The notes below the pieces were generated by a model. That model saw only the letters and a program-made list of their open reading frames with translations, was not told where the DNA came from and ran no database searches. This document shows, piece by piece, positions 414-22,672 of a stretch of DNA of 64,000 nt. The DNA is from an uncultured Lachnospiraceae bacterium (GTDB lineage: Bacteria > Bacillota > Clostridia > Christensenellales > UBA1242): positions 4,055-68,054 of the forward strand of contig CAYMVO010000001.1 of assembly GCA_964393975.1 (NCBI GenBank). The letters are read 5' to 3'. Position numbers and translations under genes: made by a program. Within the stretch, counting starts at the first letter, position 1; each line of letters opens with the position of its first letter.

Positions 414-1184
414 ATGGATAGTTTAGTATTTTACAATTTAGGTCGTTTGGCATCAACTAGCGAGATAAATTTAAGAGGGATGCAAGGTGTTATTGTGCTT
501 TTTTTAGGGAAGCATTTTGTTACTGCTTGTAAATCTTTAGGACTAAATATAGAGCTAGTGGATGTGTTGGAACCAGAAGCTTTTGAAAAGCACAAGGATG
601 AGCTAGAAATGTTGGTGAAATACATAAAATCAGTAAATACTCTATGCTCAAAAGGTGGTTGGGACACTAAGCAAGTAAATAAGTTTTTAAAAACTTTTGG
701 GGTGCGTGCTGAGATGGGCGCTATTGATAATATTAAGCAACTTTTTGACTCATTAAATCAAATGAAAGAAATAACAAACCCTTTTTCATTTAATTTGATT
801 TGTAGTGGCTTGATAAATATATATTTTGTGAATAATGGCTACTTAAAATATCCTGTTATTGATTGTGTTAAGGAGCTTAATGATAGCGGTCTAATATATG
901 CTTTGGAGTCATCTTTAAAGACGATTAATATGATTAAAAAACTCGTTAAGACTGACAAAGAAAAGCTATTAGATTACACCAAATCAGTACCAAATATGTT
1001 TGATTATGCTATTACAAATCCTGTATTTGACGTCGGGATGAGTATTGAAGATACAAAGCTCAGTTTTGCGACTGCTAGCAAGGTTGTTGGTGTGCTTGAA
1101 AAAGAAAAAATTTTACAAAAAATCAGTGGAAATATGCGATATCGTGTATATAAATATTCCGCGTTATTAGATTTATTTAAGTAG
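414..1184 (+). CDS. Fic/Doc-fold-like protein with degenerate active-site motif and C-terminal wHTH-like tail
   Basis: GAGGAG Shine-Dalgarno (SD) sequence lies just upstream of the ATG. The Fic-like helix context LINxxxVNNGYxxxPVI is retained, but the motif position reads NPFSFNLICSGL instead of HxFx(D/E)GNGRxxR. The C-terminal segment SFATASKVVGVLEKEKILQKISGNMRYRVYKY resembles a winged helix. Confidence 0.45.
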   Translation: MDSLVFYNLGRLASTSEINLRGMQGVIVLFLGKHFVTACKSLGLNIELVDVLEPEAFEKHKDELEMLVKYIKSVNTLCSKGGWDTKQVNKFLKTFGVRAEMGAIDNIKQLFDSLNQMKEITNPFSFNLICSGLINIYFVNNGYLKYPVIDCVKELNDSGLIYALESSLKTINMIKKLVKTDKEKLLDYTKSVPNMFDYAITNPVFDVGMSIEDTKLSFATASKVVGVLEKEKILQKISGNMRYRVYKYSALLDLFK

Positions 1185-1347: not shown

Positions 1348-1526
1348 ACAAATGTGAAGTCACTGAATTGGGTGAGGTTTACTTGATTGTAATAAAACAC
1401 TGAGGGAAATATATTGTTATGCACTATTTTGTGAATTAGTTAATAATCTTATAGTTTACAATCTAATTACAGTCCACTATGACGTACTTTTTATACAACA
1501 ACAAACTAAATATTAGGGAGAGATTT

Positions 1527-2456
1527 ATGAAATTGTTAAATGATTACGAAAAATTACAAAATGAAAATAAGATCATCACGCCACTTTTGGCTAATTGTAA
1601 ATCTAATAACAACGGCAGTGCTATAAATATTATGAAAGAACACAGATATGGTTTTCGTGTACTTAGACCTATAGATGATATTAATACTGAGTTTACACTA
1701 GCTAGAGTTGAGGGGAATGGTGCCATTCGTAATAGTTTGCAAGGTATAGCGAATAGTATATTTGCTAGCTTGGGGATTGAGCCTTGCGAGGTGGTTTTAT
1801 ATAAGGAACCGAATAATATAAATGATATTTATAGCGGTTCTTATAGTCACAGAGAGGGTTTTATTTATTATAACTTAGGTAATTTTTCATATAATGAAGA
1901 TTGCGGCAAGCATGTGGGTGCGAGCGTATATGCTAATTTGATTAAATTATGTGTGGATAGAGCAAGGTTTATTGAATTGGCAGAATATATAAACAATTCT
2001 AAAAATTATAACGCCTATGAAAAGGCGGTGAATAGTTACTTTATCGCATCTAAGAGCATTGAAGCGTTTAAAAAATTGAATAATATTAAAGAGGATGTTT
2101 CGCAAATAAATTTTAATAAATTTGATAGTTTTTATAGAGTAATGGACGTATTAAGTAGGACTAATGATGATATGTTAAATGCGCAATTAAGACCTATAAT
2201 GAAAGAGGAACTATCTGAAATCGCTAAAGCGAATACGAGAAGATTAGCATCTCAATTAATCGCTGATTATAAGAGTAATATGGAGGAGTTTGGTTGCTAT
2301 TTTGATGGCGTAGTAAGTAATAAAGTGAAAAATAGTATAGATTTGAAAGAAAACTCTAATGATTTATTGTATTTGCAAAACGCTCTTGAGGTCAAGATAA
2401 ATAGATTAAAGGATATATACGCTGAAAAAGATAATTTACAAGATAGAGGCTTGTAA
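1527..2456 (+). CDS. hypothetical protein (orphan, no recognisable motif)
   Basis: 309-aa ORF. I moved the start to ATG 1527, which follows a GGGAGAG SD; the track start at 1479 has none. It has its own promoter and is followed by a strong terminator. Confidence 0.6.
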   Translation: MKLLNDYEKLQNENKIITPLLANCKSNNNGSAINIMKEHRYGFRVLRPIDDINTEFTLARVEGNGAIRNSLQGIANSIFASLGIEPCEVVLYKEPNNINDIYSGSYSHREGFIYYNLGNFSYNEDCGKHVGASVYANLIKLCVDRARFIELAEYINNSKNYNAYEKAVNSYFIASKSIEAFKKLNNIKEDVSQINFNKFDSFYRVMDVLSRTNDDMLNAQLRPIMKEELSEIAKANTRRLASQLIADYKSNMEEFGCYFDGVVSNKVKNSIDLKENSNDLLYLQNALEVKINRLKDIYAEKDNLQDRGL

Positions 2457-3398: not shown

Positions 3399-4841
3399 CT
3401 ACACCTCTATATTATCAATGTTTTTAAATAATGAATTTAATTCTTCAGGGGAGTAACTATGCGATGTTACTTTATTCTTTGTAGGTGCTTCAAAATCTTT
3501 TGTGTCCTTCTCTGCTTGCTCTACGGTCTTAATATTGCTATCATTATAATGATGTAGTATCTTATTTAAATACTGCATAGGTTGTACCTTTTGACTAGAT
3601 TTTGTTATGGCATAATCTAACAATTCCTTTGATACATTAAACTTTTCTGTCCATATTTTGTACATATCTCTATCAAAAGTATTTACCGCTCTAGTGGTTC
3701 CTAACTTTTCTAAAATAATCTTGATATTAGCATCAATATCCGCTAAATCATTCATATATTCATTTAGTGCGTCTATAGTTATTATACCGAGGCGATAAAA
3801 TTTGTCTAATTTTGAGTCCATACCTTCTAGAGTCCTTGTAGATGTTTTAAAGCAATATGTAGCAATTTCTCCTAACACATCGCTTGTAAACCCTAGATTT
3901 AACCATTTACACACATAATTTTCTACCACAGGCTCAAGATTTTCATAATAAACACCTAATCTCGATGCGATAGTCTTTGCGATAGTGTAGTAGGTCGTTT
4001 TTTGAGTCTCATAAGACTCAATGAGTTCAATACTATTTAGTTGCATCGTATGATACTTTTGTAGCTTATTAGCTAATAATGTCAATCCAGATTTGTTTTT
4101 TGTTTTGAGTGATTTGGCGACGTAAAAAATGATGCTTTTATCAAAATTTAGTTCATTTTTTATTTTTGCCCATAAATCTCGCTCTTCAAAAGATGCGGTT
4201 CTGCGTATGCCAAATATCTTGAGTAATTCTCTTAAATCTTCATCATCAGAGAAATTGTCCTTGATTTCGTTGAGTACGGCTTCTAAAGTAAGTAGCCCTT
4301 TGTATGCCCACGATTTTGCTACGGTTAGAATATATGAATATCCAACATCGCCACCTTTTAGCTCTACGCAAAACTTTATGATTTGCATCAATGCTTGTGG
4401 ATCCATGTGCATACTTTCCAAAAAATTTATGTATTCATAATACTCGTTTGTACTAATCATTCTATTAGGCAACAACTCTTGCGCGCAATAACAAAATTCG
4501 CTATATTTTCCTTTTGTGATATCGTTTTCACCTATTTTAACCGCTTTTTTGACAGGTAAGTAGCGTATTTGAATAGGCTCAATATTTAACACCTTGACAA
4601 GACCTATATCTTGCAAATACATAAAGTATGCTATAACATCTTGCTCGCTAATGCTAAGCTTGTCCATAAAAGTCTTGATGTCGTTGCTTGGGTGAGAGGA
4701 GTTGTTGCAAAAATATAAACCCAATAAATAGGTCTTTACTGCTCCTTCTGGCGCCAAAGGCATATATTCAGTAATAAATAAATTGCTAACCTTTACACTA
4801 TCAATAATCGTGCGTTCATTAGAAAATTTGCAAAAATCCAT
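3399..4841 (-). CDS. DnaD/DnaB(B. subtilis)-type replication initiation and membrane attachment protein
   Basis: It carries repeated DnaD-like C-terminal (DnaB_2) modules, e.g. YILTVAKSWAYKGLLTLEAV and MQYLNKILHHYNDSNIKTVEQAE. It sits immediately upstream of dnaI, as in Bacilli. I moved the start to ATG 4841, which follows AAGGAGAAGG. Confidence 0.7.
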   Translation of the reverse strand: MDFCKFSNERTIIDSVKVSNLFITEYMPLAPEGAVKTYLLGLYFCNNSSHPSNDIKTFMDKLSISEQDVIAYFMYLQDIGLVKVLNIEPIQIRYLPVKKAVKIGENDITKGKYSEFCYCAQELLPNRMISTNEYYEYINFLESMHMDPQALMQIIKFCVELKGGDVGYSYILTVAKSWAYKGLLTLEAVLNEIKDNFSDDEDLRELLKIFGIRRTASFEERDLWAKIKNELNFDKSIIFYVAKSLKTKNKSGLTLLANKLQKYHTMQLNSIELIESYETQKTTYYTIAKTIASRLGVYYENLEPVVENYVCKWLNLGFTSDVLGEIATYCFKTSTRTLEGMDSKLDKFYRLGIITIDALNEYMNDLADIDANIKIILEKLGTTRAVNTFDRDMYKIWTEKFNVSKELLDYAITKSSQKVQPMQYLNKILHHYNDSNIKTVEQAEKDTKDFEAPTKNKVTSHSYSPEELNSLFKNIDNIEV

Positions 4842-4964
4842 ATCCTTCTCCTTAATATATACAAGCATTATATCACAAACGAATAAAAAGTACAACGTAA
4901 TAGTTATAATTAAGACAAACTTTTTATATAAATATTTAAAGTCAAGGAGGTTGATTGATAGTTT

Positions 4965-6437
4965 ATGAAAAGAGTTTTTGTATGCCTTATACTAGTTATG
5001 GTGTTATTCACTGGTTGTAGTACACTAGATATAGATAAACAATCACAAAACCTAACAAATTATTATATGGATGTTGATTTAAATTTTAATGAAAAGACTG
5101 CTACATTAAATGAAAAAATAGATTACTATAATAAATGTGATATCGTATTAGACGAATTAAGATTTCACTTGTATCCGAACGCATTTACATCTAGAGACTT
5201 AAGTGTTTTACCGGTGACAGAGTTTAACTATGCAAAAGCTTATCCAAACGGGTTTGATGCGGGGAGTATAAAGATAGAATCGGTCAGCATAGATAACAAA
5301 CAAATTGATTTTGAATTACTAAACGAGGACTCAATTTTAAAAATCAATTTATTAGAAGGACTATATCCTACCAAACGAGTGGAAATCAGTTTATCTGCGA
5401 AAATAAAAATCCCAAACCTAAAACATAGATTTGGTTATGCGGAAGACACACTAAATTTTTGTAATTTTTACCCGATAGCGTGTGTTTATGAAAACGGTGA
5501 GTTTATACAAGATAGGTATACTAGCAATGGGGATCCTTTTTACAGTGAAGTCAGTAATTATCTAGTAAATGTGACTTATGATTCAAATCTAAAAGTTGGT
5601 TCTACTGGGTGGCTGGAAAAATCAGTCACGGCGGATAAAACTACTAGCACATACAAAGCAAAAGTGGTGCGTGATTTTGGTATGACTTTTAGCGAAAAGT
5701 TTGAAAAACTGGAAAAAACCGTTGATGGCATTAAATACACCTACCTTTATTATGATGATGATTTAGCGGAAAAGCACTTGCAAACGATGATAGATGCTGT
5801 AAATACTTTTGGTAATCTTCTTGGTAAATATCCTTATCCCACTATTACGGCTGTAAAAAGTGATTTTATTTACGGCGGAATGGAATATCCAAATTTTGTG
5901 ATAATTAGTGATGATTTAGTGAACGAACGCGATTATCTAAACGCACTTATTCACGAGATAGGTCATCAATGGTTTTATGGGATAGTTGGAAATAACGAAG
6001 TAAAAGAAGCGTGGCTAGATGAAGGATTGACTGAGTGTATAACGGCATTGTTTTACGAATTGAACCCAAGCTACGGAGTAGAATATCAAGAAGTTGTAGC
6101 AAGTGCTCTCAGTAGTTATATGCTATTTGTTGATGTCTATGAAGATGTTTTTGGTGAAAGATTTAACACGAGTATGAATAGGAGTTTGAGTGAGTTTAAT
6201 AGTGAACCTGAGTACACTTATCTTATCTATGTAAAAGGTCTTCTTTTGCTGGATAACCTAAGGTCGGTGGTGGGAGATAGTGGATTTTTTCTAGGTTTAA
6301 AGAGTTATTACGAAAATAGTAAATTTGGTGTCGCTACGACTGATTGTTTTATCGCTATGTTTGAAAAGGCGACCAACAAAAATCTTGAAAACATTATAAA
6401 ATCGTGGCTAAATGGAAATGTGGTCATAGAAGGATAA
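4965..6437 (+). CDS. M1-family (gluzincin) zinc metallopeptidase, predicted lipoprotein
   Basis: HEIGHQWFYGIVGNNEVKEAWLDEG matches HExxH-x18-E. The N-terminal signal peptide has a lipobox-like LFTGC. Confidence 0.8.
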   Translation: MKRVFVCLILVMVLFTGCSTLDIDKQSQNLTNYYMDVDLNFNEKTATLNEKIDYYNKCDIVLDELRFHLYPNAFTSRDLSVLPVTEFNYAKAYPNGFDAGSIKIESVSIDNKQIDFELLNEDSILKINLLEGLYPTKRVEISLSAKIKIPNLKHRFGYAEDTLNFCNFYPIACVYENGEFIQDRYTSNGDPFYSEVSNYLVNVTYDSNLKVGSTGWLEKSVTADKTTSTYKAKVVRDFGMTFSEKFEKLEKTVDGIKYTYLYYDDDLAEKHLQTMIDAVNTFGNLLGKYPYPTITAVKSDFIYGGMEYPNFVIISDDLVNERDYLNALIHEIGHQWFYGIVGNNEVKEAWLDEGLTECITALFYELNPSYGVEYQEVVASALSSYMLFVDVYEDVFGERFNTSMNRSLSEFNSEPEYTYLIYVKGLLLLDNLRSVVGDSGFFLGLKSYYENSKFGVATTDCFIAMFEKATNKNLENIIKSWLNGNVVIEG

Positions 6438-6465
6438 ATTTTTGTGTGTTTTTATCTATTTGATA

Positions 6466-6494
6466 TTGACTTGAATGTAAAATTTTGTTATAAT
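6466..6494 (+). promoter_or_regulatory. sigmaA-type promoter (TTGACT-17-TGtTATAAT)
   Basis: -35 at 6466-6471 and extended -10 at 6486-6494, about 30 nt upstream of the 6526 ATG. Confidence 0.55.
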
Positions 6495-6525
6495 ACTAAT
6501 GAAAAAATAAAAAGGATGTGTCTTT

Positions 6526-9500
6526 ATGATTTTGGAATATACTGGTAGACAACTTAAAATGTTTGACGAGAGAAGATTGGATGATACTTTTTACAAGGCA
6601 TTTTTGAATGATTATAGTGCTATTAGCACGAGAGATATGATTATCAAAGAGTATGATGCTTTGACTAATTTTGACGACTTTAGCAATCTTAAAAAAGCGG
6701 AAGATATATTTTGGGCTAAGGATAAAGGCACAGTAAGGCGTCGTTCATATTTTGATAGTCAACGCAAGAATATGATTAGAAACGCAATGCAAGAATACGA
6801 TAAGTGCTTGAATAATGTTATTATTTCTTTAAAAAAGAGTGAAGTGTTAGAGGAGCAAGTAAAAAATGCGACAAATCTTTTTGCTAGACAAGATCCTGAC
6901 CAACTAAGTCCAGAAGCATTGAAGGAAGCGCAACAAACGGTTGCTAATAATAATTTAATCTCTGAATTGTATGCGAAAGGCATTTTAGGACAAACTCTAG
7001 CTGAGGCGTTTAGCATTAGTAAGGCGCTTGAGTCAACATATAAGGGTGTTGATGGTGGCAAACTAAATGAGTTGCTCAGAGGTTCAAATTTTGAGCTCGC
7101 TTATAATAAAGTCAAAAATATTGACTTGACTGATGCTTTAAATAAAAAGAATATGGAAGAGACAATTGAAAAGTTTAAAGAATTAAAGTATTCTATAACT
7201 TATCTCAAAATGAATTTATCAAATACCAATTTATTGACGGAAAATGAAAAAACCAATTATAATCTTTTTAGAAAGCGTATAAGAGAGAATGAAAAAATAA
7301 TTTTTCCTAAGTTTAGAGATGAACAATTAAAAGAGTTTGAAAAAGCAGAAAAAGTCTTAGACAAAGAAAGTCTGAGAGAGGTGTTTAATAATATACTTGT
7401 CTCTAATAGAGTACAAAGAAAGCTAACTGCACCTTGTTACAATTATTCACAAATGGATTTTAGAAACGCAAGTTTTTGTGATCGTATTTTAATGGAAGCG
7501 AGCTTTTGGACTGGGGATGAAAGAACTAAAAAAGTTTTTGCGGAAATCAAGAATAAATTTATGTATGATCCAAAAACAGTAGAAAGAGCAAATTTGTATC
7601 GTGGGTTAGTGGCTAATGTGGAAGATTTGAAATTGTCTAACAATATCTTTACAAACGGTTTAATGATTGATGAGTTCCAAAAAAGAGCTGGAGCCTACAG
7701 AAGTAAAAAAAGTAGCAATAAACCTTTTATGGAGGAGTGCAAATTTCAAGATGCAATAAATAATTCTTTTGATGCTTCATATAGGCTCATCCATAGACCA
7801 CCGTATGATAAAGATTTGACACTAGATAAAGAGGCAAAGGTAAATGATGAAATTGCTAAATTTTTGGCAAAAGAAAAGCTTCATATGTTTATGCAAGGTG
7901 TGGAAGTTTCCAATCAAATGATTGTGGAAGCGACAAATGGAGACAAGGAGCAATATGACAAACTAATAAAGGCGTCAAATTCGTTCTCTAAGTCATACGT
8001 TTCAAATGTTTATGAGGCGTTTCGTGATGTGGTGTTAAATAACAAAGTAGAGAAGTTATACAGTTATTTCAATAAAAATAATGACGCTAGTAGGATTTTG
8101 GGCAATGATGATATGCTTAGTTACGCAAAGACTTTAGCGGAATGTGAGTATTTAGTTTATTCACTTGATGAAAATCAATTTAAAGAATTTAAAAACTTAT
8201 TAGCGGAGAAAAATAAAAGTTTAAATTCAATCATTGAACCATTATATAAAGATGAAAATAATGCCTCAATCAAAAATACAATTGACGCTTTGACTATATT
8301 AAATAGAGAGCATCTACGTTCATTATCACTAGAAGACAAACAATCAATTTTCAATAGAAGACTATATACTTATGCTCATCAATACAATAACGAAGGGGTT
8401 TTATCTGCTAGGGAGCATAATGAATTTATTGAGCGTTTTAAAGGGTTTATGGACTCCGAAGACGAAATGGTCTCTGCAATTATTAAGGAACAAAGATTTG
8501 CGGATATTAGCGATAGTATTAAAAGAGGTAGTAATTTATCCGCGGGACCTACTGGACCAAGCGCACCAACTGGTGCGGGTGCATCTGTTAGAGCAGGTGA
8601 ACCTATTATGATAGCAGGTGCGCCAACTGGTGCGGGTGCTGAGCCAACTGCGTCTACGCCAGCAAAGGAACCTAGCGAAGATGCTAAGGCAAAAAAAGAA
8701 GATAAAAAACCTGAAGCAAAGGCAGAAGCAAAAGAAAAACTAGACAGTCTAAAAGAGCTACCAGATTATGAAAAAGATATGGCGACTTTAAAAGACATTA
8801 AAAAGAAATATAGCAAGGCAGATTTTGCTCAAGATAATAAAAAATTTTGGAACGGACTTGGTTTTGTTGCGTGCGTATTAATAGGTATTGCAATGGTGCT
8901 TACAGGTGCCGCTTTACCAGGGCTTGCTGCTTACGCGTTAGGTAACTTTGCGGCTATAGGTATAGGTGCCGGTTACTTTTGGACCAAGCGCGAAGAAGTC
9001 GCCGGACCACGCCGAGCTGACGCTAGACGAGTACAAGAAATTATGGATAAATATGGCATCAAGACTATACCTCAAAGAGCGTTAGGATTTTTAGGTAGGT
9101 TTAACCCATTCCAAAGGTCAATGGAGCGTAATATGGTCGAGGCACCTGAAATTTATATCAATGACGCTATAGCTAGAATGCAAAAAATGAGATGTGAAAC
9201 TGATTTGTATAATAGCACAATATGTGGTGGAACTGGTCTTGGAGAGAGTAGTGAAGTTAAAGCTGATAAAGGGGAAGAAATAGACCACGAAGCTAGTGAA
9301 AAGAAAGAGCCTGAAAAAGAAGCTATTGCTAAGACTGAGGAAACTGAAAAAGCTGAAGAGAAAAAGCCTGAAGAAAAAGCAAAAGCTCCAGAAACGGCAA
9401 GTACTGAAGAATCTAAAGGGGAGACGGTCGAAACTTTAGGCGCTGGTGATGAGTCAAAAGAAGAGGTTGAACCAACTACTTTGGAAGAACCTAAAGAAGT

Positions 9501-9699
9501 TGAAGAGAAAGAGGCTAAAACATCTACCCCAGAAGAAACTAAAGAAACCGAAGTATTGGAGAAAGGTGGGGAAACTAAAGCTCCAGAACCTAAAGAAGTG
9601 GAAGAGATTACTCCAAAAGGACTAGAGGAGGAAAAGACTCCAACAAGACAAATGACGCTAGATGACTTTGGCGGAAGGACTATGGAAAGGTGGTCTTAA
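6526..9699 (+). CDS. large orphan membrane-anchored protein (1057 aa) with low-complexity linker and acidic tail
   Basis: Uninterrupted 3.2 kb ORF. It begins with a ~650-aa helical N-terminal region without known motifs. A G/A/P/T repeat linker follows (~8536-8760), then a hydrophobic hairpin FWNGLGFVACVLIGIAMVLTGAALPGLAAYALGNFAAIGIGAGYFW (~8845-8985). The tail is E/K/T/P-rich (~9240-9696). Confidence 0.75.
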   Translation: MILEYTGRQLKMFDERRLDDTFYKAFLNDYSAISTRDMIIKEYDALTNFDDFSNLKKAEDIFWAKDKGTVRRRSYFDSQRKNMIRNAMQEYDKCLNNVIISLKKSEVLEEQVKNATNLFARQDPDQLSPEALKEAQQTVANNNLISELYAKGILGQTLAEAFSISKALESTYKGVDGGKLNELLRGSNFELAYNKVKNIDLTDALNKKNMEETIEKFKELKYSITYLKMNLSNTNLLTENEKTNYNLFRKRIRENEKIIFPKFRDEQLKEFEKAEKVLDKESLREVFNNILVSNRVQRKLTAPCYNYSQMDFRNASFCDRILMEASFWTGDERTKKVFAEIKNKFMYDPKTVERANLYRGLVANVEDLKLSNNIFTNGLMIDEFQKRAGAYRSKKSSNKPFMEECKFQDAINNSFDASYRLIHRPPYDKDLTLDKEAKVNDEIAKFLAKEKLHMFMQGVEVSNQMIVEATNGDKEQYDKLIKASNSFSKSYVSNVYEAFRDVVLNNKVEKLYSYFNKNNDASRILGNDDMLSYAKTLAECEYLVYSLDENQFKEFKNLLAEKNKSLNSIIEPLYKDENNASIKNTIDALTILNREHLRSLSLEDKQSIFNRRLYTYAHQYNNEGVLSAREHNEFIERFKGFMDSEDEMVSAIIKEQRFADISDSIKRGSNLSAGPTGPSAPTGAGASVRAGEPIMIAGAPTGAGAEPTASTPAKEPSEDAKAKKEDKKPEAKAEAKEKLDSLKELPDYEKDMATLKDIKKKYSKADFAQDNKKFWNGLGFVACVLIGIAMVLTGAALPGLAAYALGNFAAIGIGAGYFWTKREEVAGPRRADARRVQEIMDKYGIKTIPQRALGFLGRFNPFQRSMERNMVEAPEIYINDAIARMQKMRCETDLYNSTICGGTGLGESSEVKADKGEEIDHEASEKKEPEKEAIAKTEETEKAEEKKPEEKAKAPETASTEESKGETVETLGAGDESKEEVEPTTLEEPKEVEEKEAKTSTPEETKETEVLEKGGETKAPEPKEVEEITPKGLEEEKTPTRQMTLDDFGGRTMERWS
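8566..8639 (+). repeat. in-frame 17-bp perfect direct repeat (CCAACTGGTGCGGGTGC) inside the large ORF
   Basis: Copies lie at 8566-8582 and 8623-8639, 57 bp (19 codons) apart. Both encode PTGAGA in a locally GC-richer block. Confidence 0.9.
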
Positions 9700-9752
9700 A
9701 ATTTTCAATAAATTATTTGCGTTATTATTCTAATATAGTAAAACAATAGACA

Positions 9753-9780
9753 AAAGAGGCTATAAACTAGTCTCTTTTTA
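9753..9780 (+). terminator. rho-independent terminator
   Basis: AAAGAGGCTA-taaac-TAGTCTCTTT stem with one G.U pair, followed by a T run, downstream of the 9699 stop. Confidence 0.65.
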
Positions 9781-9902
9781 TTTATTCGTTTAGTAAATGA
9801 ATATTTATTTGTAGTAAGTCACTTATGAAATAAATATGATTTTAATTGCTATTATTTAATTTTTTTGATATACTAAAATAAATAAAAGTAAATAGGTGAG
9901 AT

Positions 9903-10823
9903 ATGATTTATGATAGTATTATAGTGGGCGGTGGACCTTGTGGTGTTACTGCAGGGATTTATTTGGCGAGAAGCGGTAGGAAAGTCTTATTATTGGAAAA
10001 ATCTATGATTGGTGGGCAAATTTTGTATACTCCAAATATAGAAAATTATCCTGGGTTTGTTGGTGGTGATGGATTTACACTATGTCAAAATTTTATGCGA
10101 CAATTAAGTCACGAAAAAGTTGAGGTAAAGTACGAAGAAGCAATATCTTTTGATTTTAGTGAAAAAATTAAAAAAATTTTGACATCAAAAGGAACATATT
10201 TAGCTAAAACTGTCATATTATGCTTAGGAGCGGAAAGCAAAAAACTTAATGTCGCTAATGAGTCAAATTTAGCAGGGAAAGGCGTTTCTTATTGTGCCGT
10301 GTGCGATGGTTCGCTGTTTAAAGACAAAAGTGTTTGTGTGATAGGTGGGGGAAACACGGCTGTAGAAGAAGCGATTTATCTCAGTGACATAGTAAAGACT
10401 GTCAATCTAGTTGTGAGGCGAGATGAGTTTCGTGCCGAACGCTCTTTGGTCGATACACTATATTCTAAGAAAGAAAATGGTAAAGATATCAATATTATTT
10501 TTAATAGTGTTGCTTGTGATATAGAGGGTTTTGACAAAGTTACAAGTATCAATTTGGAAAATACTATAGACAATACAAAATCTAACATCAAAGTAGATGG
10601 CGTGTTTGTAGCTATAGGATGCGTACCAAATACAAAAGCACTAAAAGGGATACTTGATTTGGATGAAATGGGATATATTAAGACTTCAGTTTATGAGACT
10701 AGCGTCAGTGGTGTGTTTGCCGGCGGTGATGTTATTCAAAAAAACCTTCGTCAAGTAGCAACCGCTGTGGCAGATGGTGCTTTGATAAGTGTTGAAATCA
10801 ATAATTACCTAAGAAAAATTTAA
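9903..10823 (+). CDS. trxB: thioredoxin-disulfide reductase
   Basis: FAD motif GGGPCG, redox-active CAVCDG and NADPH motif GGGNTAVEEA are present. Confidence 0.9.
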   Translation: MIYDSIIVGGGPCGVTAGIYLARSGRKVLLLEKSMIGGQILYTPNIENYPGFVGGDGFTLCQNFMRQLSHEKVEVKYEEAISFDFSEKIKKILTSKGTYLAKTVILCLGAESKKLNVANESNLAGKGVSYCAVCDGSLFKDKSVCVIGGGNTAVEEAIYLSDIVKTVNLVVRRDEFRAERSLVDTLYSKKENGKDINIIFNSVACDIEGFDKVTSINLENTIDNTKSNIKVDGVFVAIGCVPNTKALKGILDLDEMGYIKTSVYETSVSGVFAGGDVIQKNLRQVATAVADGALISVEINNYLRKI

Positions 10824-10908
10824 AGTATCTAAGATTGATGGTTATTTGAAATAGTAAAATAAATCTGATATGTTAGATTGGCGTAAATTATTTTTAGGAG
10901 GCTTTCTT

Positions 10909-12337: not shown

Positions 12338-13021
12338 ATGAGTGTTTGTAGTTTTTGTGGCAGTGAATTGGTGTCTTTAAATGAGGCAGAGCAAAAAGTT
12401 TTAGCGGGGTTAATAAATAGTAGTAAATGTGGCGATTTATACAAATTGTATCCACACGTTTTTGAATATTGTCCTAATTGCCTTGTTTGTAAGGATGTGA
12501 CAGAAGATGATATAAAAAAAATAACTTTGCGTAAAGATGATTTACAAAAAGCATTTGAAAATAAAAAAATTGAGGATGTGGATATTTTTAAGTGGGCGAG
12601 GATAGCGGAGTTGGTTGGCTTTAATTATGAAATATTAGGTGATTATAGAAAAAGCACGCTTGCTTACAAGGCTTGCACTGATATATTAGATTTGATGATA
12701 TCTACTTATATATCTAAAAATCAGCATTTAGTGGATGAGAACGGTGAGACAGTCAGTCTTTTAAAAGAAGAAGCTTTTGAAAAATGCAAAAATGCTTTGA
12801 TATATAGTAAAAGTTTGAAAAGATTGACCTTAGGGCATTGTCAAAAATGTTTAAGTGATGATGATTTTTTAATGTTTTTAATTTATTTTGATACTTTGAT
12901 TGAGTTGGGTGTAAAAGATGAATGCGTAAAAATATCAACAGTTTTACAAAAAGAAAAACATCCTAATAGTGATTATCAGAATGCAATCAATTGTTTGATA
13001 CAAAAAGCATCAAATTTCTAG
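12338..13021 (+). CDS. zinc-ribbon plus helical (TPR-like) protein, DUF2225-like; paralog of 14239-14904
   Basis: N-terminal CxxC...CPNC (CSFCGSEL ... YCPNCLVC) is followed by a helical C-terminal part. The architecture matches that of 14239-14904. Confidence 0.5.
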   Translation: MSVCSFCGSELVSLNEAEQKVLAGLINSSKCGDLYKLYPHVFEYCPNCLVCKDVTEDDIKKITLRKDDLQKAFENKKIEDVDIFKWARIAELVGFNYEILGDYRKSTLAYKACTDILDLMISTYISKNQHLVDENGETVSLLKEEAFEKCKNALIYSKSLKRLTLGHCQKCLSDDDFLMFLIYFDTLIELGVKDECVKISTVLQKEKHPNSDYQNAINCLIQKASNF

Positions 13022-14095
13022 TCTAGTCACATATCTTTTTGTTAGATTATTGGCACTATTTGAGAAGTTGCTAGATTGGTCAGCTTGTAACTTTTCAATG
13101 ACGTATTTAAAATTGCACGGTGGATTGTAGCCGTGTATTTGACCTAATTGAATAGAGTCTTTCGAGTTGGTGTGTTTATCCGAACCATAGGAAGTGAATT
13201 TAACATTTTGATATAATGCGTTATAAGTTTCTTTAATATCATCGTTAGTGTAGCTTATAAGCTCCACACCATCAACGCCCATTTTTAGAAGTGTGTTTGT
13301 CATCATTTCTGCGTAGCTAAAACGTTGAATCTTATTATGATTGTATCGGTCGGAAAATTTTTTAAAACTTTTTAGTGGGTGCGCTATCATACATTTTCCA
13401 CCTGCTTTATGGACCGCATCAATCACGCTTTTTACATTTAAAATAATATTGTCTCTTGTTTTAAATAAGTTTCTTAATCTTAATAGCTCCAACTTTAACC
13501 TTTCACTAGAAAAACCTTTATTACTAAAATAATCGATTACTTCTTCCCAAGTGTATTTATCATGTATGCTTGAATTTTCAGACACGCGTTTGTCAAAAAC
13601 ATAATTTTTAAAATCATCTCTACTATACACCTTGCCATAGTTTTCATTCCCATATTTTACCAAGGTCTCTGGAATTGTAAAAAATGTCTCAAGATAATCT
13701 TCATATTTATCTCTTAAAAGACGCATAAATGGATTGTTCGGATCACGATTGAACCCGTAACATAATATGTGTAGTTTTTGTTTTTTCTTAGCGGAATGTG
13801 AGTAATAGCAAGTGATTTCAGCACCACATGCTACCTTTATCCCATCTTGTTGAAAATAAATTTTATCATCACTTAGTCCCAATGAACGCATATAGTTATC
13901 TACACCTGCGCAAGTATTGTGGTCGGTGATAGCGATATGAGATAAGTTTCTTTCTTTTGCTTCTTTTATAACTTCTTCAATAGTAAGATTAGCATCAGGA
14001 GAGCTGGCGGTATGAATATGCCCGTCAATATTATTGCTTTCTTTACAAAGTTGGTTCATATTATACGTCTTTAAGGACGGTTTTTTAACTCTCAT
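13010..14095 (-). CDS. PHP-domain metal-dependent phosphoesterase (TrpH/YciV-like)
   Basis: PHP motif series DGHIHTASSPDA, IAITDHNT, GAEITC, HILCYGF, MIAHP, GVELISY, GSDKH. A TAGGAGG SD and TTGAAT-17-TGaTAAAAT promoter lie on the minus strand. Confidence 0.75.
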   Translation of the reverse strand: MRVKKPSLKTYNMNQLCKESNNIDGHIHTASSPDANLTIEEVIKEAKERNLSHIAITDHNTCAGVDNYMRSLGLSDDKIYFQQDGIKVACGAEITCYYSHSAKKKQKLHILCYGFNRDPNNPFMRLLRDKYEDYLETFFTIPETLVKYGNENYGKVYSRDDFKNYVFDKRVSENSSIHDKYTWEEVIDYFSNKGFSSERLKLELLRLRNLFKTRDNIILNVKSVIDAVHKAGGKCMIAHPLKSFKKFSDRYNHNKIQRFSYAEMMTNTLLKMGVDGVELISYTNDDIKETYNALYQNVKFTSYGSDKHTNSKDSIQLGQIHGYNPPCNFKYVIEKLQADQSSNFSNSANNLTKRYVTRLEI

Positions 14096-20511: not shown

Positions 20512-21012
20512 ATGGATATAAAAAAATATAATATGGGATCATATTTTGCTATTGGTTTATCATTTATAAATATTATACTATTTTTTATGCCTTTTACATT
20601 TAGTAGGATAATCCCTTCACAAATAAGTGCTTATGGTATGTTTTTAAATATGTTTGATCCCGTACACGCTGAAGGTGTAGGAGCGTCACTTTTAAATGCG
20701 GGTTATAATGAAGGTGTAGGTGTTGTGTATAGTGTTTATGCTTATATTATTCCTATAATGGCGGTAGTGTTTTTGTGTTTTTCAGTGATGATTATGGTGT
20801 ATAGTTTTGTTGATCTATATGGTCTTAGGGCAAACAAAAAATTAGTGACGTACTTGTCTTATGCACTTGTAATAATTCTCGTGATTATATCTATTTTACT
20901 TATAATTCGTAGCGGTCAAGTCGCTGGTGGTATTGGAATAGGTTATGGATTAGTTATGGCTTTTGTGACTAGTTCAATACTTGCAGTAATGAGATATTTA
21001 AAAATTCAATAA
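20512..21012 (+). CDS. integral membrane protein, unknown function
   Basis: Four or five hydrophobic helices and no recognisable motif. Confidence 0.55.
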   Translation: MDIKKYNMGSYFAIGLSFINIILFFMPFTFSRIIPSQISAYGMFLNMFDPVHAEGVGASLLNAGYNEGVGVVYSVYAYIIPIMAVVFLCFSVMIMVYSFVDLYGLRANKKLVTYLSYALVIILVIISILLIIRSGQVAGGIGIGYGLVMAFVTSSILAVMRYLKIQ

Positions 21013-21488: not shown

Positions 21489-21941
21489 ATGATAGCAAAT
21501 AACATAATGGAAATAAAATTCCCAGCATTATCTGTAAATGAAGGGTTTGCGAGGACTTGTGTTGCGTCGTTTTGTTTGCAATTAAACCCAACAATAGAGG
21601 AATTAAACGATGTGAAAACTGCAGTAAGTGAGGCGGTAACAAATTGTGTGGTGCACGCTTATCCAACCAAAGTAGGTGAGGTTTATCTAAAGGCTGAAAT
21701 TTTTGATGATAGCGTAACCATTACAATAAAAGATGATGGTATAGGGATAACCGATTTTGAAAAAGCGAGGCAACCATTTTTTACCACAAAACCAAATAGC
21801 GAACGTAGTGGAATGGGGTTTGCTGTAATGGAAAGTTTTATGGATGAGTTGACATTAGCTAAAAACGAAGAAAGAGGTCTTGTTGTGGTAATGAAAAAAC
21901 GATTTGGGAAAATACCAATGAGCGAGGCTATAGGAGGTTAG
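21489..21941 (+). CDS. spoIIAB: anti-sigma-F factor / serine kinase SpoIIAB
   Basis: HATPase N box EAVTNCVVHAY, G1 DDGIGI and G2 GMGFAVM are present. It lies in the operon between spoIIAA and sigF. Confidence 0.85.
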   Translation: MIANNIMEIKFPALSVNEGFARTCVASFCLQLNPTIEELNDVKTAVSEAVTNCVVHAYPTKVGEVYLKAEIFDDSVTITIKDDGIGITDFEKARQPFFTTKPNSERSGMGFAVMESFMDELTLAKNEERGLVVVMKKRFGKIPMSEAIGG

Positions 21942-21946
21942 ATTTT

Positions 21947-22672
21947 GTGCTGGAACACGCAGAGACATTGAGACTCATAAAAGAGGCTCAAAACGGAAGT
22001 GAAAGAGCGAAATCTACCTTATTGGAGAATAATTATCCTTTGATTAAGAGTGTGATAAAGCGTTTTAAAAACAAAGGAATAGAGTATGATGACTTGTATC
22101 AACTTGGGTGTGTTGGTTTTTTGAAAGCAATTAAAAATTTTAATGAGGAGTTTAATGTTAAATTTTCTACCTATATTGTACCTATGGTCGCGGGAGAAGT
22201 AAAACGATTTATGCGTGATGACGGGGCGATTAAGGTGAGTAGAGCATTAAAAAGTTTACATTATAACATTACTAAATTAACCAATGACTATAGACAAAAA
22301 AATAACGGTCAAAGTCCAAGCATTGAGTATTTAGCGCAAGAGCTCAAAGTAGATACGCAAGAAATTGTTATGGCGTTGGATAGCAGTAAGAGTCTTATTA
22401 GTCTAAATGAAAAATATGATGAAGATGATAGCAATAGTCCTTGCATTATAGAAAGAGTTGCGGTAAAAGATGAGTCGCACGAGGTGATAGATTATATCCT
22501 TTTAAAAGAAGCGTTAGAGGAATTAGATGATAGAGAGAAAAAAGTCATAATACTAAGGTATTTTAGAAATAAAACGCAAAGTGAAGTAGCTTTGGCGTTA
22601 GGTGTATCGCAGGTACAAATAAGTAGACTAGAGACAAAAATCCTCAATAAAATGCGTAAAAAAATAGAATAA
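21947..22672 (+). CDS. sigF: sporulation sigma factor SigF
   Basis: Sigma-70 regions 2 to 4 are recognisable (DDLYQLGCVGFLKAIKNF, FSTYIVPMVAGEVKRFMRDDGAIKVSR, QSEVALALGVSQVQISRLE). The sequence is close to the B. subtilis SigF pattern. Confidence 0.85.
   Translation: MLEHAETLRLIKEAQNGSERAKSTLLENNYPLIKSVIKRFKNKGIEYDDLYQLGCVGFLKAIKNFNEEFNVKFSTYIVPMVAGEVKRFMRDDGAIKVSRALKSLHYNITKLTNDYRQKNNGQSPSIEYLAQELKVDTQEIVMALDSSKSLISLNEKYDEDDSNSPCIIERVAVKDESHEVIDYILLKEALEELDDREKKVIILRYFRNKTQSEVALALGVSQVQISRLETKILNKMRKKIE

Follow-up and report, generated by a model that had tools for sequence, protein, structure and literature searches.

The question raised by this locus is what its largest gene encodes and what the product might do. 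The locus lies in a segment of 64,000 nucleotides (nt) from an uncultured Lachnospiraceae bacterium (contig CAYMVO010000001.1, assembly GCA_964393975.1), called the window below, and the gene specifies a protein of 1057 amino acids (aa). An initial annotation, made from the letters of the window, had described this protein as an orphan anchored in the membrane. Judged by the searches reported here, it is a member of a new, lineage-restricted protein family that is confined to a narrow clade of uncultured Clostridia and resembles no described family. The protein consists of a large helical N-terminal domain (the N-domain), a hydrophobic hairpin and a long acidic tail. We tentatively favour the reading that it serves as a scaffold in the cytoplasm, where the hairpin would anchor it to the inner membrane face and its tail would present a docking peptide.

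A single, native gene

The open reading frame (ORF) at 6526-9699 is the longest in the window, as had been stated; the runner-up encodes 744 aa. The 1057-aa protein is recorded in identical form on eight contigs, which were assembled independently and come from several samples. Seven alleles of the same species (90% cluster) all have a length of 1057 aa and differ at nine sites. The ORF is also intact, at the syntenic position, in five more diverged lineages, making six in total with the window.

Purifying selection acts along the whole length of the protein. When the loci L001 and L002 are compared by the Nei-Gojobori method, the ratio of nonsynonymous to synonymous substitution rates (dN/dS) is 0.20 in the N-domain, 0.13 in the linker that follows it, 0.03 in the hairpin, 0.21 in the segment after the hairpin and 0.13 in the tail. 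Constraint is strongest in the hairpin, which has the lowest ratio and no variable site among the seven alleles.

The 3' third of the gene has a GC content of 0.425. Its GC content at third codon positions (GC3) is 0.26, a value typical of the genome and also found in the neighbouring genes. The higher GC content is thus a consequence of amino acid composition. A foreign origin of the GC-richer part is ruled out by the GC3 value, and the gene is therefore native and not acquired. No paralogue of the protein was found within the window.

The change in composition, at about nt 8350, is the sole pointer to an assembly or annotation artefact, or to a fusion of two genes. This explanation has practically no probability left and can be regarded as refuted by the recovery of the same protein from independent assemblies of several samples, by the retention of the full architecture in five diverged lineages and by a GC3 that is uniform along the gene. 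The ORF is a single gene, with the same architecture and the same chromosomal position in six lineages.

Members of the family and the search for relatives

Two relatives, P0002 (locus L001) and P0003 (L002), are 58-59% identical to the window protein, and two others, P0004 (L004) and P0006 (L005), are 23% identical. Locus L003 belongs to a metagenome-assembled genome (MAG) in GTDB, 'uncultured Clostridia bacterium BRZ_T_bin79', and has an ORF of 1048 aa with 26% identity, of which P0005 is a truncated copy. P0004, P0005 and P0006 were added when 1.84 billion cluster representatives were scanned exhaustively with a HMMER profile; the scan returned five proteins, four of them belonging to the family. 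Word-indexed searches of 5.8 billion proteins had the same three close clusters alone among the matches listed, low-complexity words having probably taken up the permitted number of candidates. The GTDB species representatives contain one family member, a first genome scan having given none and a second one MAG. The family profile detected no member in the JGI metagenomes, and no relative was found among viral contigs (IMG/VR). Eighty metagenomic loci baited by the M1 peptidase, the product of the adjoining gene, contained neither a family member (hmmsearch) nor a protein of similar architecture, and the search therefore gave no positional analogue beyond the clade. The phyletic distribution thus found is limited to six lineages, which form a small clade of uncultured Clostridia.

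The description of the protein as an orphan was borne out by the absence of matches in Pfam, NCBIfam, PHROGs, PADLOC and the PDB sequences, and none of the sources gives the protein a name. A Pfam scan of the window protein and six family members gave nothing at E <= 1 beyond noise, while in NCBIfam, PHROGs and PADLOC neither the window protein nor other members of the family obtained anything beyond inconsistent noise below threshold. A single-sequence phmmer search of the PDB sequences found no match, and the best match of a profile search of the PDB, a coiled-coil M protein (E = 0.013), was judged to be compositional. A motif search in the family found no P-loop, HExxH, CxxC, LPXTG or collagen-like run; the N-domain thus has invariant patches but lacks a catalytic signature.

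One further protein, P0007 (247 aa, locus L090), matched in the hairpin only (E = 2e-4). It is encoded in an unrelated context, adjacent to yajC-secDF, and its match was judged to be probably compositional. P0007 (L090 6001-6744) contains two tandem G/A-rich hydrophobic hairpins with a GLPIGLG turn. Its weak likeness to the hairpin of the family may be compositional or may point to a reusable hairpin module.

Domain organization

The membrane anchor and the architecture of the protein are demonstrated computationally (Table 1). The same arrangement of N-domain, hairpin, KYG(I/L)K motif, acidic tail and terminal G-R peptide is retained in the members with only 23-26% identity.

An AlphaFold model of the N-domain, calculated from a six-sequence alignment, has 26 helices, a predicted local distance difference test score (pLDDT) of 80 and a predicted TM-score (pTM) of 0.76. 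Helix is the only secondary structure up to residue 661, in agreement with the helical region of ~650 aa proposed initially. Foldseek searches with the N-domain gave no significant match among 350,542 PDB chains (best E 0.34, TM-score ~0.12) or in BFVD (best E 0.04, TM-score ~0.12), in keeping with the initial view that this region is novel. On the basis of the model, the all-alpha fold is provisionally considered to be new. Internal repeats were sought in the N-domain and none were detected. The six-lineage alignment has three family-invariant motifs, LV(S/L)NR..+KL..P.Y (residues 291-305), F.N....D (375-382) and EAT (468-470), and otherwise scattered invariant residues.

The linker differs in length and sequence between lineages. 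In the window protein it contains a G/A/P block with a perfect 17-nt repeat (CCAACTGGTGCGGGTGC, at 8566-8582 and 8623-8639, spaced by 57 nt and hence in frame) and with a short collagen-like fragment, GPTGPS. The initial annotation had placed the low-complexity block and its repeat correctly, and a G/A/P repeat linker is indeed present in this protein, but it is not a feature of the family. The block is missing from the 58-59% identical orthologues and is, on this comparison, an insertion found only in the window species. It should therefore carry no functional weight. The K/E-rich segment that follows was found as described.

According to its hydropathy the protein has one hydrophobic stretch, residues 773-820, which supports the earlier proposal of a membrane anchor formed by a two-helix hairpin. 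The hairpin, of ~44 aa, consists of two G/A-rich helices joined by TGAALPG and is preceded by KK and followed by KR; its beginning, put earlier at about nt 8845, is at 8842. Every member of the family has a single hydrophobic span above threshold, 34-57 aa long, with a central GG or PG turn and with K or R on both flanks. All N-termini are hydrophilic, and none of the members has a signal peptide.

About 20 residues past the hairpin, at residues 842-846, is the family motif KYG(I/L)K(T/F), followed by a basic helix; the hydrophobic moment shows residues 842-876 to be moderately amphipathic. The tails of the family are 151-206 aa long, have a net charge of -18 to -25 and can be aligned only at their extreme end. 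A unit coding for EPKEVEE occurs twice in the window tail, at 9486-9508 and 9585-9607, with 96% identity. The segment of ~100 aa and the E/K/T/P-rich tail with repeated PKEVEE that had been noted at the end of the protein thus correspond to regions of 85 aa and 152 aa. In a full-length AlphaFold model based on four sequences (pLDDT 41), the tail is without secondary structure and of low confidence.

Table 1. Coordinates of the features of the gene and its product in the window
Feature	Position (nt)	Strand	Basis or remarks
Sigma-A-type promoter: TTGACT, 17-nt spacer ending in TGT (extended -10), TATAAT	6466..6494	+	11/12 matches, with TG
Short conserved leader (ACTAATGAAAAAATAAAAAGGATG...) with ribosome-binding site AAAGGA at 6511-6516	6495..6525	+	
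Coding sequence of the 1057-aa protein	6526..9699	+	ATG start, stop codon included; orthologues; dN/dS
N-terminal all-alpha domain, residues 1-665	6526..8520	+	AlphaFold model, invariant columns
Disordered linker, residues 666-713, G/A/P block	8521..8664	+	A 23%, G 19%, P 15%
K/E/D-rich segment and conserved pre-membrane helix (D..L..I..KY), residues 714-772	8665..8841	+	K 29%, conserved columns
Hydrophobic hairpin, residues 773-820	8842..8985	+	Kyte-Doolittle hydropathy
Basic post-hairpin segment, residues 821-905, 85 aa, net charge +4	8986..9240	+	Composition
Acidic tail, predicted disordered, residues 906-1057, 152 aa	9241..9696	+	E 30%, K 14%, T 12%, net charge -25
C-terminal peptide DDFGGRT, residues 1046-1052	9661..9681	+	Conserved tail ends
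Intrinsic terminator: 11-pair stem (hairpin 9752-9778), then T-run	9752..9788	+	

The C-terminal peptide

The end of the tail is the part that is shared. The consensus of the family is (D/E/N)-x-G-R-(K/T/Q)-(R/M), or in short form D-x-G-R-x-(R/M). The tails end in ...DDFGGRTMERWS (window), ...NEDGRTR (P0002), ...NENGRTR (P0003), ...EDGGRKRIID (P0004), ...DDDGGRKRKKQ (P0006) and ...DDGGRQRTMDDGGRQRTID (L003). In the L001-L005 loci the pattern [DEN][DENG]GR[KTQR] is confined to the C-termini of the family proteins. The window protein has an FGGRT variant, which does not match this exact pattern. A terminal peptide that stays constant after 150-200 freely diverging residues would be the signature of a short linear docking motif.

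The L003 protein carries the peptide as a tandem duplication (L003 7021-7080). A duplication of this kind fits a functional short linear motif with variable copy number.

Promoter, leader and terminator

A ribosome-binding site, AAAGGA, is situated 9 nt 5' of the ATG codon. The sequence TTGACT-17(TGn)-TATAAT is found 54-60 nt 5' of the ATG in five of the six lineages (window, L001, L003, L004 and L005), and L002 has TCGACT in place of TTGACT. Terminator hairpins with T-runs follow the stop codon in at least four of the six (window, L002, L003 and L004). Because promoter and terminators are conserved, the gene is, as predicted from these signals, a monocistronic unit with a strong promoter of the vegetative type. 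The initial annotation had already assigned the gene its own promoter and terminator; both are now found in the orthologues as well.

The leader of ~30 nt, ACTAATGAAAAAATAAAAAGGA (window 6495-6516), is nearly identical in L001-L004, including lineages in which the protein identity is 23-26%. This is more than a plain 5' untranslated region appears to need, and the leader may contain an operator or a translational control element. A scan of nt 4800-10900 with Rfam found no family.

The type of promoter bears on the possibility that the protein is a structural component of the spore, the spore envelope or the cell envelope. The genome contains a gene pair resembling spoIIAB-sigF, so that the organism may sporulate, the protein contains the collagen-like fragment GPTGPS, and acidic low-complexity regions occur in coat morphogenetic proteins. 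The conserved promoter, however, is a consensus sigma-A promoter with an extended -10 element and not one of the sporulation type. There is also no signal peptide, both ends of the protein are predicted to be cytoplasmic, and Pfam identifies no LysM, SLH or other wall-binding domain. The G/A/P block that holds the fragment is species-specific and has fewer than four GXY triplets. A spore or envelope role is therefore quite unlikely. The initial annotation had offered a scaffold and an envelope- or spore-associated protein side by side; the first is the reading we favour, and the second is disfavoured by the sigma-A promoter and the predicted cytoplasmic ends.

Rate of divergence

The 1057-aa protein is by far the most diverged of its chromosomal block. 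Between the window and L001 or L002 the neighbouring proteins are 85-94% identical (64% for the product of a PHP-domain gene) and the 1057-aa protein 58%, while between the window and L003 or L004 the corresponding values are 51-79% and 23-26%. This unusually fast divergence and the conserved C-terminal peptide had both been missed in the initial annotation, whose description of the protein was otherwise accurate. The fast divergence is, at least in part, the reason why more distant relatives are not detected. Quick divergence is typical of helical scaffold proteins and of disordered tethers.

Fast divergence within an otherwise conserved block, together with the very narrow phyletic range, is also what might be expected of a protein engaged in genetic conflict, be it a toxin, an effector, a component of anti-phage defence or a target of phages, with the divergence driven by an arms race and not by relaxed structural constraint. 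There is nevertheless only one copy of the gene, always in the same place among housekeeping genes; its GC3 is native, and no immunity-like or partner gene accompanies it. In each segment the dN/dS ratio stays well below 1. Neither PADLOC nor PHROGs gave a match, no relative was found on viral contigs, and LXG, WXG and toxin domains are absent. These observations make a conflict protein very unlikely.

The PHP-domain gene (window 13010-14095, minus strand) is the next most diverged of the block when close relatives are compared, the identity of its product being 64% as against 85-94% for the other neighbours.

Proposed topology and function

Since there is no signal peptide, and the hydrophobic span is long, contains a turn and has basic flanks, a hairpin with both ends inside is the most economical topology. 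Hydropathy and the flanking charges fit two close transmembrane (TM) helices, and we infer that the N-domain and the acidic tail are both cytoplasmic.

If the protein is a tethered scaffold, it would operate as follows. The gene would be transcribed alone during vegetative growth from its near-consensus, extended -10 sigma-A promoter, and the protein would probably be abundant. The G/A-rich helical hairpin of ~44 residues would enter the cytoplasmic membrane from its inner side, so that both ends of the protein stay in the cytoplasm. The helical N-domain of ~660 residues, hanging on a disordered linker of variable length, would provide a conserved surface for interaction or oligomerization. 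On the other side of the hairpin, the membrane interface would be occupied by the basic segment that carries the KYG(I/L)K motif. The polyanionic tail of 150-200 residues would act as a flexible tether, and its terminal D-x-G-R-x-(R/M) peptide would dock a partner. The disorder of the tail, the docking by its terminal peptide and the function as a scaffold are all inferred.

The same layout can be seen as that of a membrane-shaping or membrane-stress protein, with the hairpin wedged into the inner leaflet and the membrane serving as the site where the helical N-domain oligomerizes. A predicted cytosolic N-domain, a close TM hairpin and a basic, moderately amphipathic segment adjacent to the membrane are as expected for such a protein, which in topology would resemble atlastin, mitofusin, the bacterial dynamin-like proteins or the reticulon-type hairpin proteins, though it has no GTPase; no other part of the molecule is as constrained as the hairpin. 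On the other hand, no member of the family has a P-loop, and there is no Pfam match to dynamin or SPFH proteins and no fold match, and the long acidic tail with its conserved terminal peptide is left unexplained. We regard a membrane-shaping role as unlikely.

Several points weigh against the tethered scaffold itself. The model of the N-domain with a pLDDT of 80 is an outlier among five, the others having values of 60-64, and rests on six sequences. The hairpin and the tail are modelled at low confidence only, and the topology is a prediction from hydropathy and the positive-inside rule. Instead of docking a partner, the terminal peptide may serve as a degron or mark a processing site, and a part in genetic conflict would suit the fast divergence as well.

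A bolder form of the proposal, which is doubtful, is that the family constitutes a new class of membrane-tethered organizer. Such a protein would combine an all-alpha fold not seen before with a hairpin anchor inserted from the cytoplasmic side, would use its polyanionic tail like a fishing line, the conserved terminal D-x-G-R-x-R peptide recruiting a core machine (division, chromosome segregation or envelope synthesis) to the membrane, and would replace a scaffold of the EzrA, MinJ or DivIVA type in this clade.

Should the protein be a membrane-tethered scaffold, part of the inner membrane face in these uncultured Clostridia would be organized by a probably abundant protein of ~1000 residues that has no relatives. 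The few bacterial hub proteins known would be joined by one with a new fold, and by a further case in which a disordered polyanionic tail ends in a docking peptide. The word "new" refers here to the family and not to a mechanism that has been demonstrated. Orphans restricted to one lineage are common, and only a partner or a phenotype would raise the practical importance of the protein above a modest level. The conserved terminal peptide provides a directly testable handle.

Genomic neighbourhood

The upstream gene, 4965-6437, encodes a Peptidase_M1 protein with a lipoprotein-type N-terminus (...LFTGC), as had been recognized in the initial annotation. The order M1 peptidase, 1057-aa gene, trxB, glmM is found in all six lineages. 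It forms part of a syntenic block of ~15 kb that also comprises dnaI and a DnaB_2/DnaD-type gene (dnaB_2), both on the minus strand, before the peptidase gene and, past glmM, genes for a Cys-rich protein of 227 aa and the PHP-domain protein ... pcrA and ligA. The peptidase neighbour is conserved, but as part of this general synteny and not as a specific pairing; because the whole block is syntenic, the adjacency is no evidence of a functional link. The window as a whole is ordinary Firmicute chromosome, containing the dcw cluster (mraZ, mraW and a penicillin-binding protein with PASTA domains), ruvABC and rpsB-tsf-frr.

The pair resembling spoIIAB-sigF is situated at 21489-22672 (plus strand) and consists of genes for a HATPase_c_2-type anti-sigma-factor kinase and, after it, a group-3 sigma factor of 241 aa. 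Its presence suggests that the organism may sporulate. Upstream of the pair is an ORF of 166 aa (20512-21012) without a Pfam match.

The 227-aa protein (12338-13021, plus strand) is conserved and has no Pfam match. Its N-terminal Cys-x2-Cys...Cys-x2-Cys arrangement is similar to a zinc ribbon. It is encoded downstream of glmM in all four loci that extend that far (L001-L004), with identities of 56-87%. Upstream of dnaI are consecutive conserved genes without a Pfam domain, two in the window (414-1184 and 1479-2456, plus strand) and four each in L002 (1298-5212) and L004 (2014-5944); by this comparison, the run is another uncharacterized, clade-specific gene block.

One metagenome assembly, ERZ27279226 (ENA), contains both the window species and the species of the 58%-identical P0003 (loci L002 and L089). 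Two members of this rare clade thus share one habitat.

Comparison with known systems

The protein was placed in none of the families with which it was compared, since at least one defining feature was absent in each test of membership that could be run. The likenesses described below are functional or architectural and not evolutionary.

Several candidates were rejected. A pore-forming toxin of the ClyA/Nhe/Hbl type was suggested by one family member only, whose NheB match of 9.3 bits (E = 0.54) compares with a cut-off of 500 bits; there is also no signal peptide. A phage tape-measure protein is contradicted by the lack of any PHROG match with a known function and of any relative on viral contigs, by the housekeeping neighbours and by the poor quality of the tape-measure matches in BFVD (E >= 0.15, TM ~0.1). 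Collagen-like exosporium proteins of the BclA type do not apply, there being no run of at least four GXY triplets and the GPTGPS fragment lying in the species-specific insertion. The best PADLOC match, to the defence protein PD-Lambda-2_A (E = 0.0038, 15.7 bits), was obtained with the K/E-rich segment of one member only.

Atlastin, mitofusin, the bacterial dynamin-like proteins and the chlamydial Inc proteins have a cytosolic N-domain, a bilobed hairpin of 40-60 aa and a cytosolic C-terminal segment that opens with a basic or amphipathic helix, a design that the family is predicted to share. These hairpin-anchored proteins carry no polyanionic tail, however. The family, for its part, lacks a GTPase and a SNARE-like coiled coil, is not encoded in a type III secretion context and does not resemble them in sequence, and the P-loop pattern [AG]xxxxGK[ST] is absent from five family members.

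The tail has a parallel in the single-stranded DNA-binding protein SSB, in which a disordered linker leads to a short, partly acidic terminal docking peptide (D-D-D-I-P-F), the only part of that tail that can be aligned. By analogy, only the logic of tail and tip would be shared. The protein described here has no OB fold or DNA-binding domain, its motif is D-x-G-R-x-(R/M), and it is anchored in the membrane.

EzrA is a membrane-tethered, helical, spectrin-like scaffold of the Firmicutes that regulates division (PMC5354558). The family shares with it a long, all-helical domain of similar size, predicted to be cytoplasmic, and a short conserved C-terminal motif. EzrA, however, has an N-terminal TM anchor and spectrin-like repeats, whereas here the N-terminus is hydrophilic, the anchor is situated past residue 770 and internal repeats are not detectable. 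The EzrA profile (PF06160) matched neither the window protein nor six family members.

The HubP/FimV proteins are large recruitment hubs that are anchored in the membrane and combine an extensive acidic region in the cytoplasm with a C-terminal element that is conserved (PMC12918733). Searches found no likeness to them in sequence or profile, and the family lacks the LysM domain (Pfam), the single TM segment, the periplasmic domain and the FimV/TPR domain (NCBIfam, Pfam). It has instead a hairpin anchor, a helical N-domain of 660 aa and a terminal peptide of only 6-7 residues, and belongs to hosts of another phylum. For the tail of the present protein, whose location in the cytoplasm is predicted from the topology, the acidic region of these hubs in Vibrio and Pseudomonas nevertheless appears to offer the best functional analogy.

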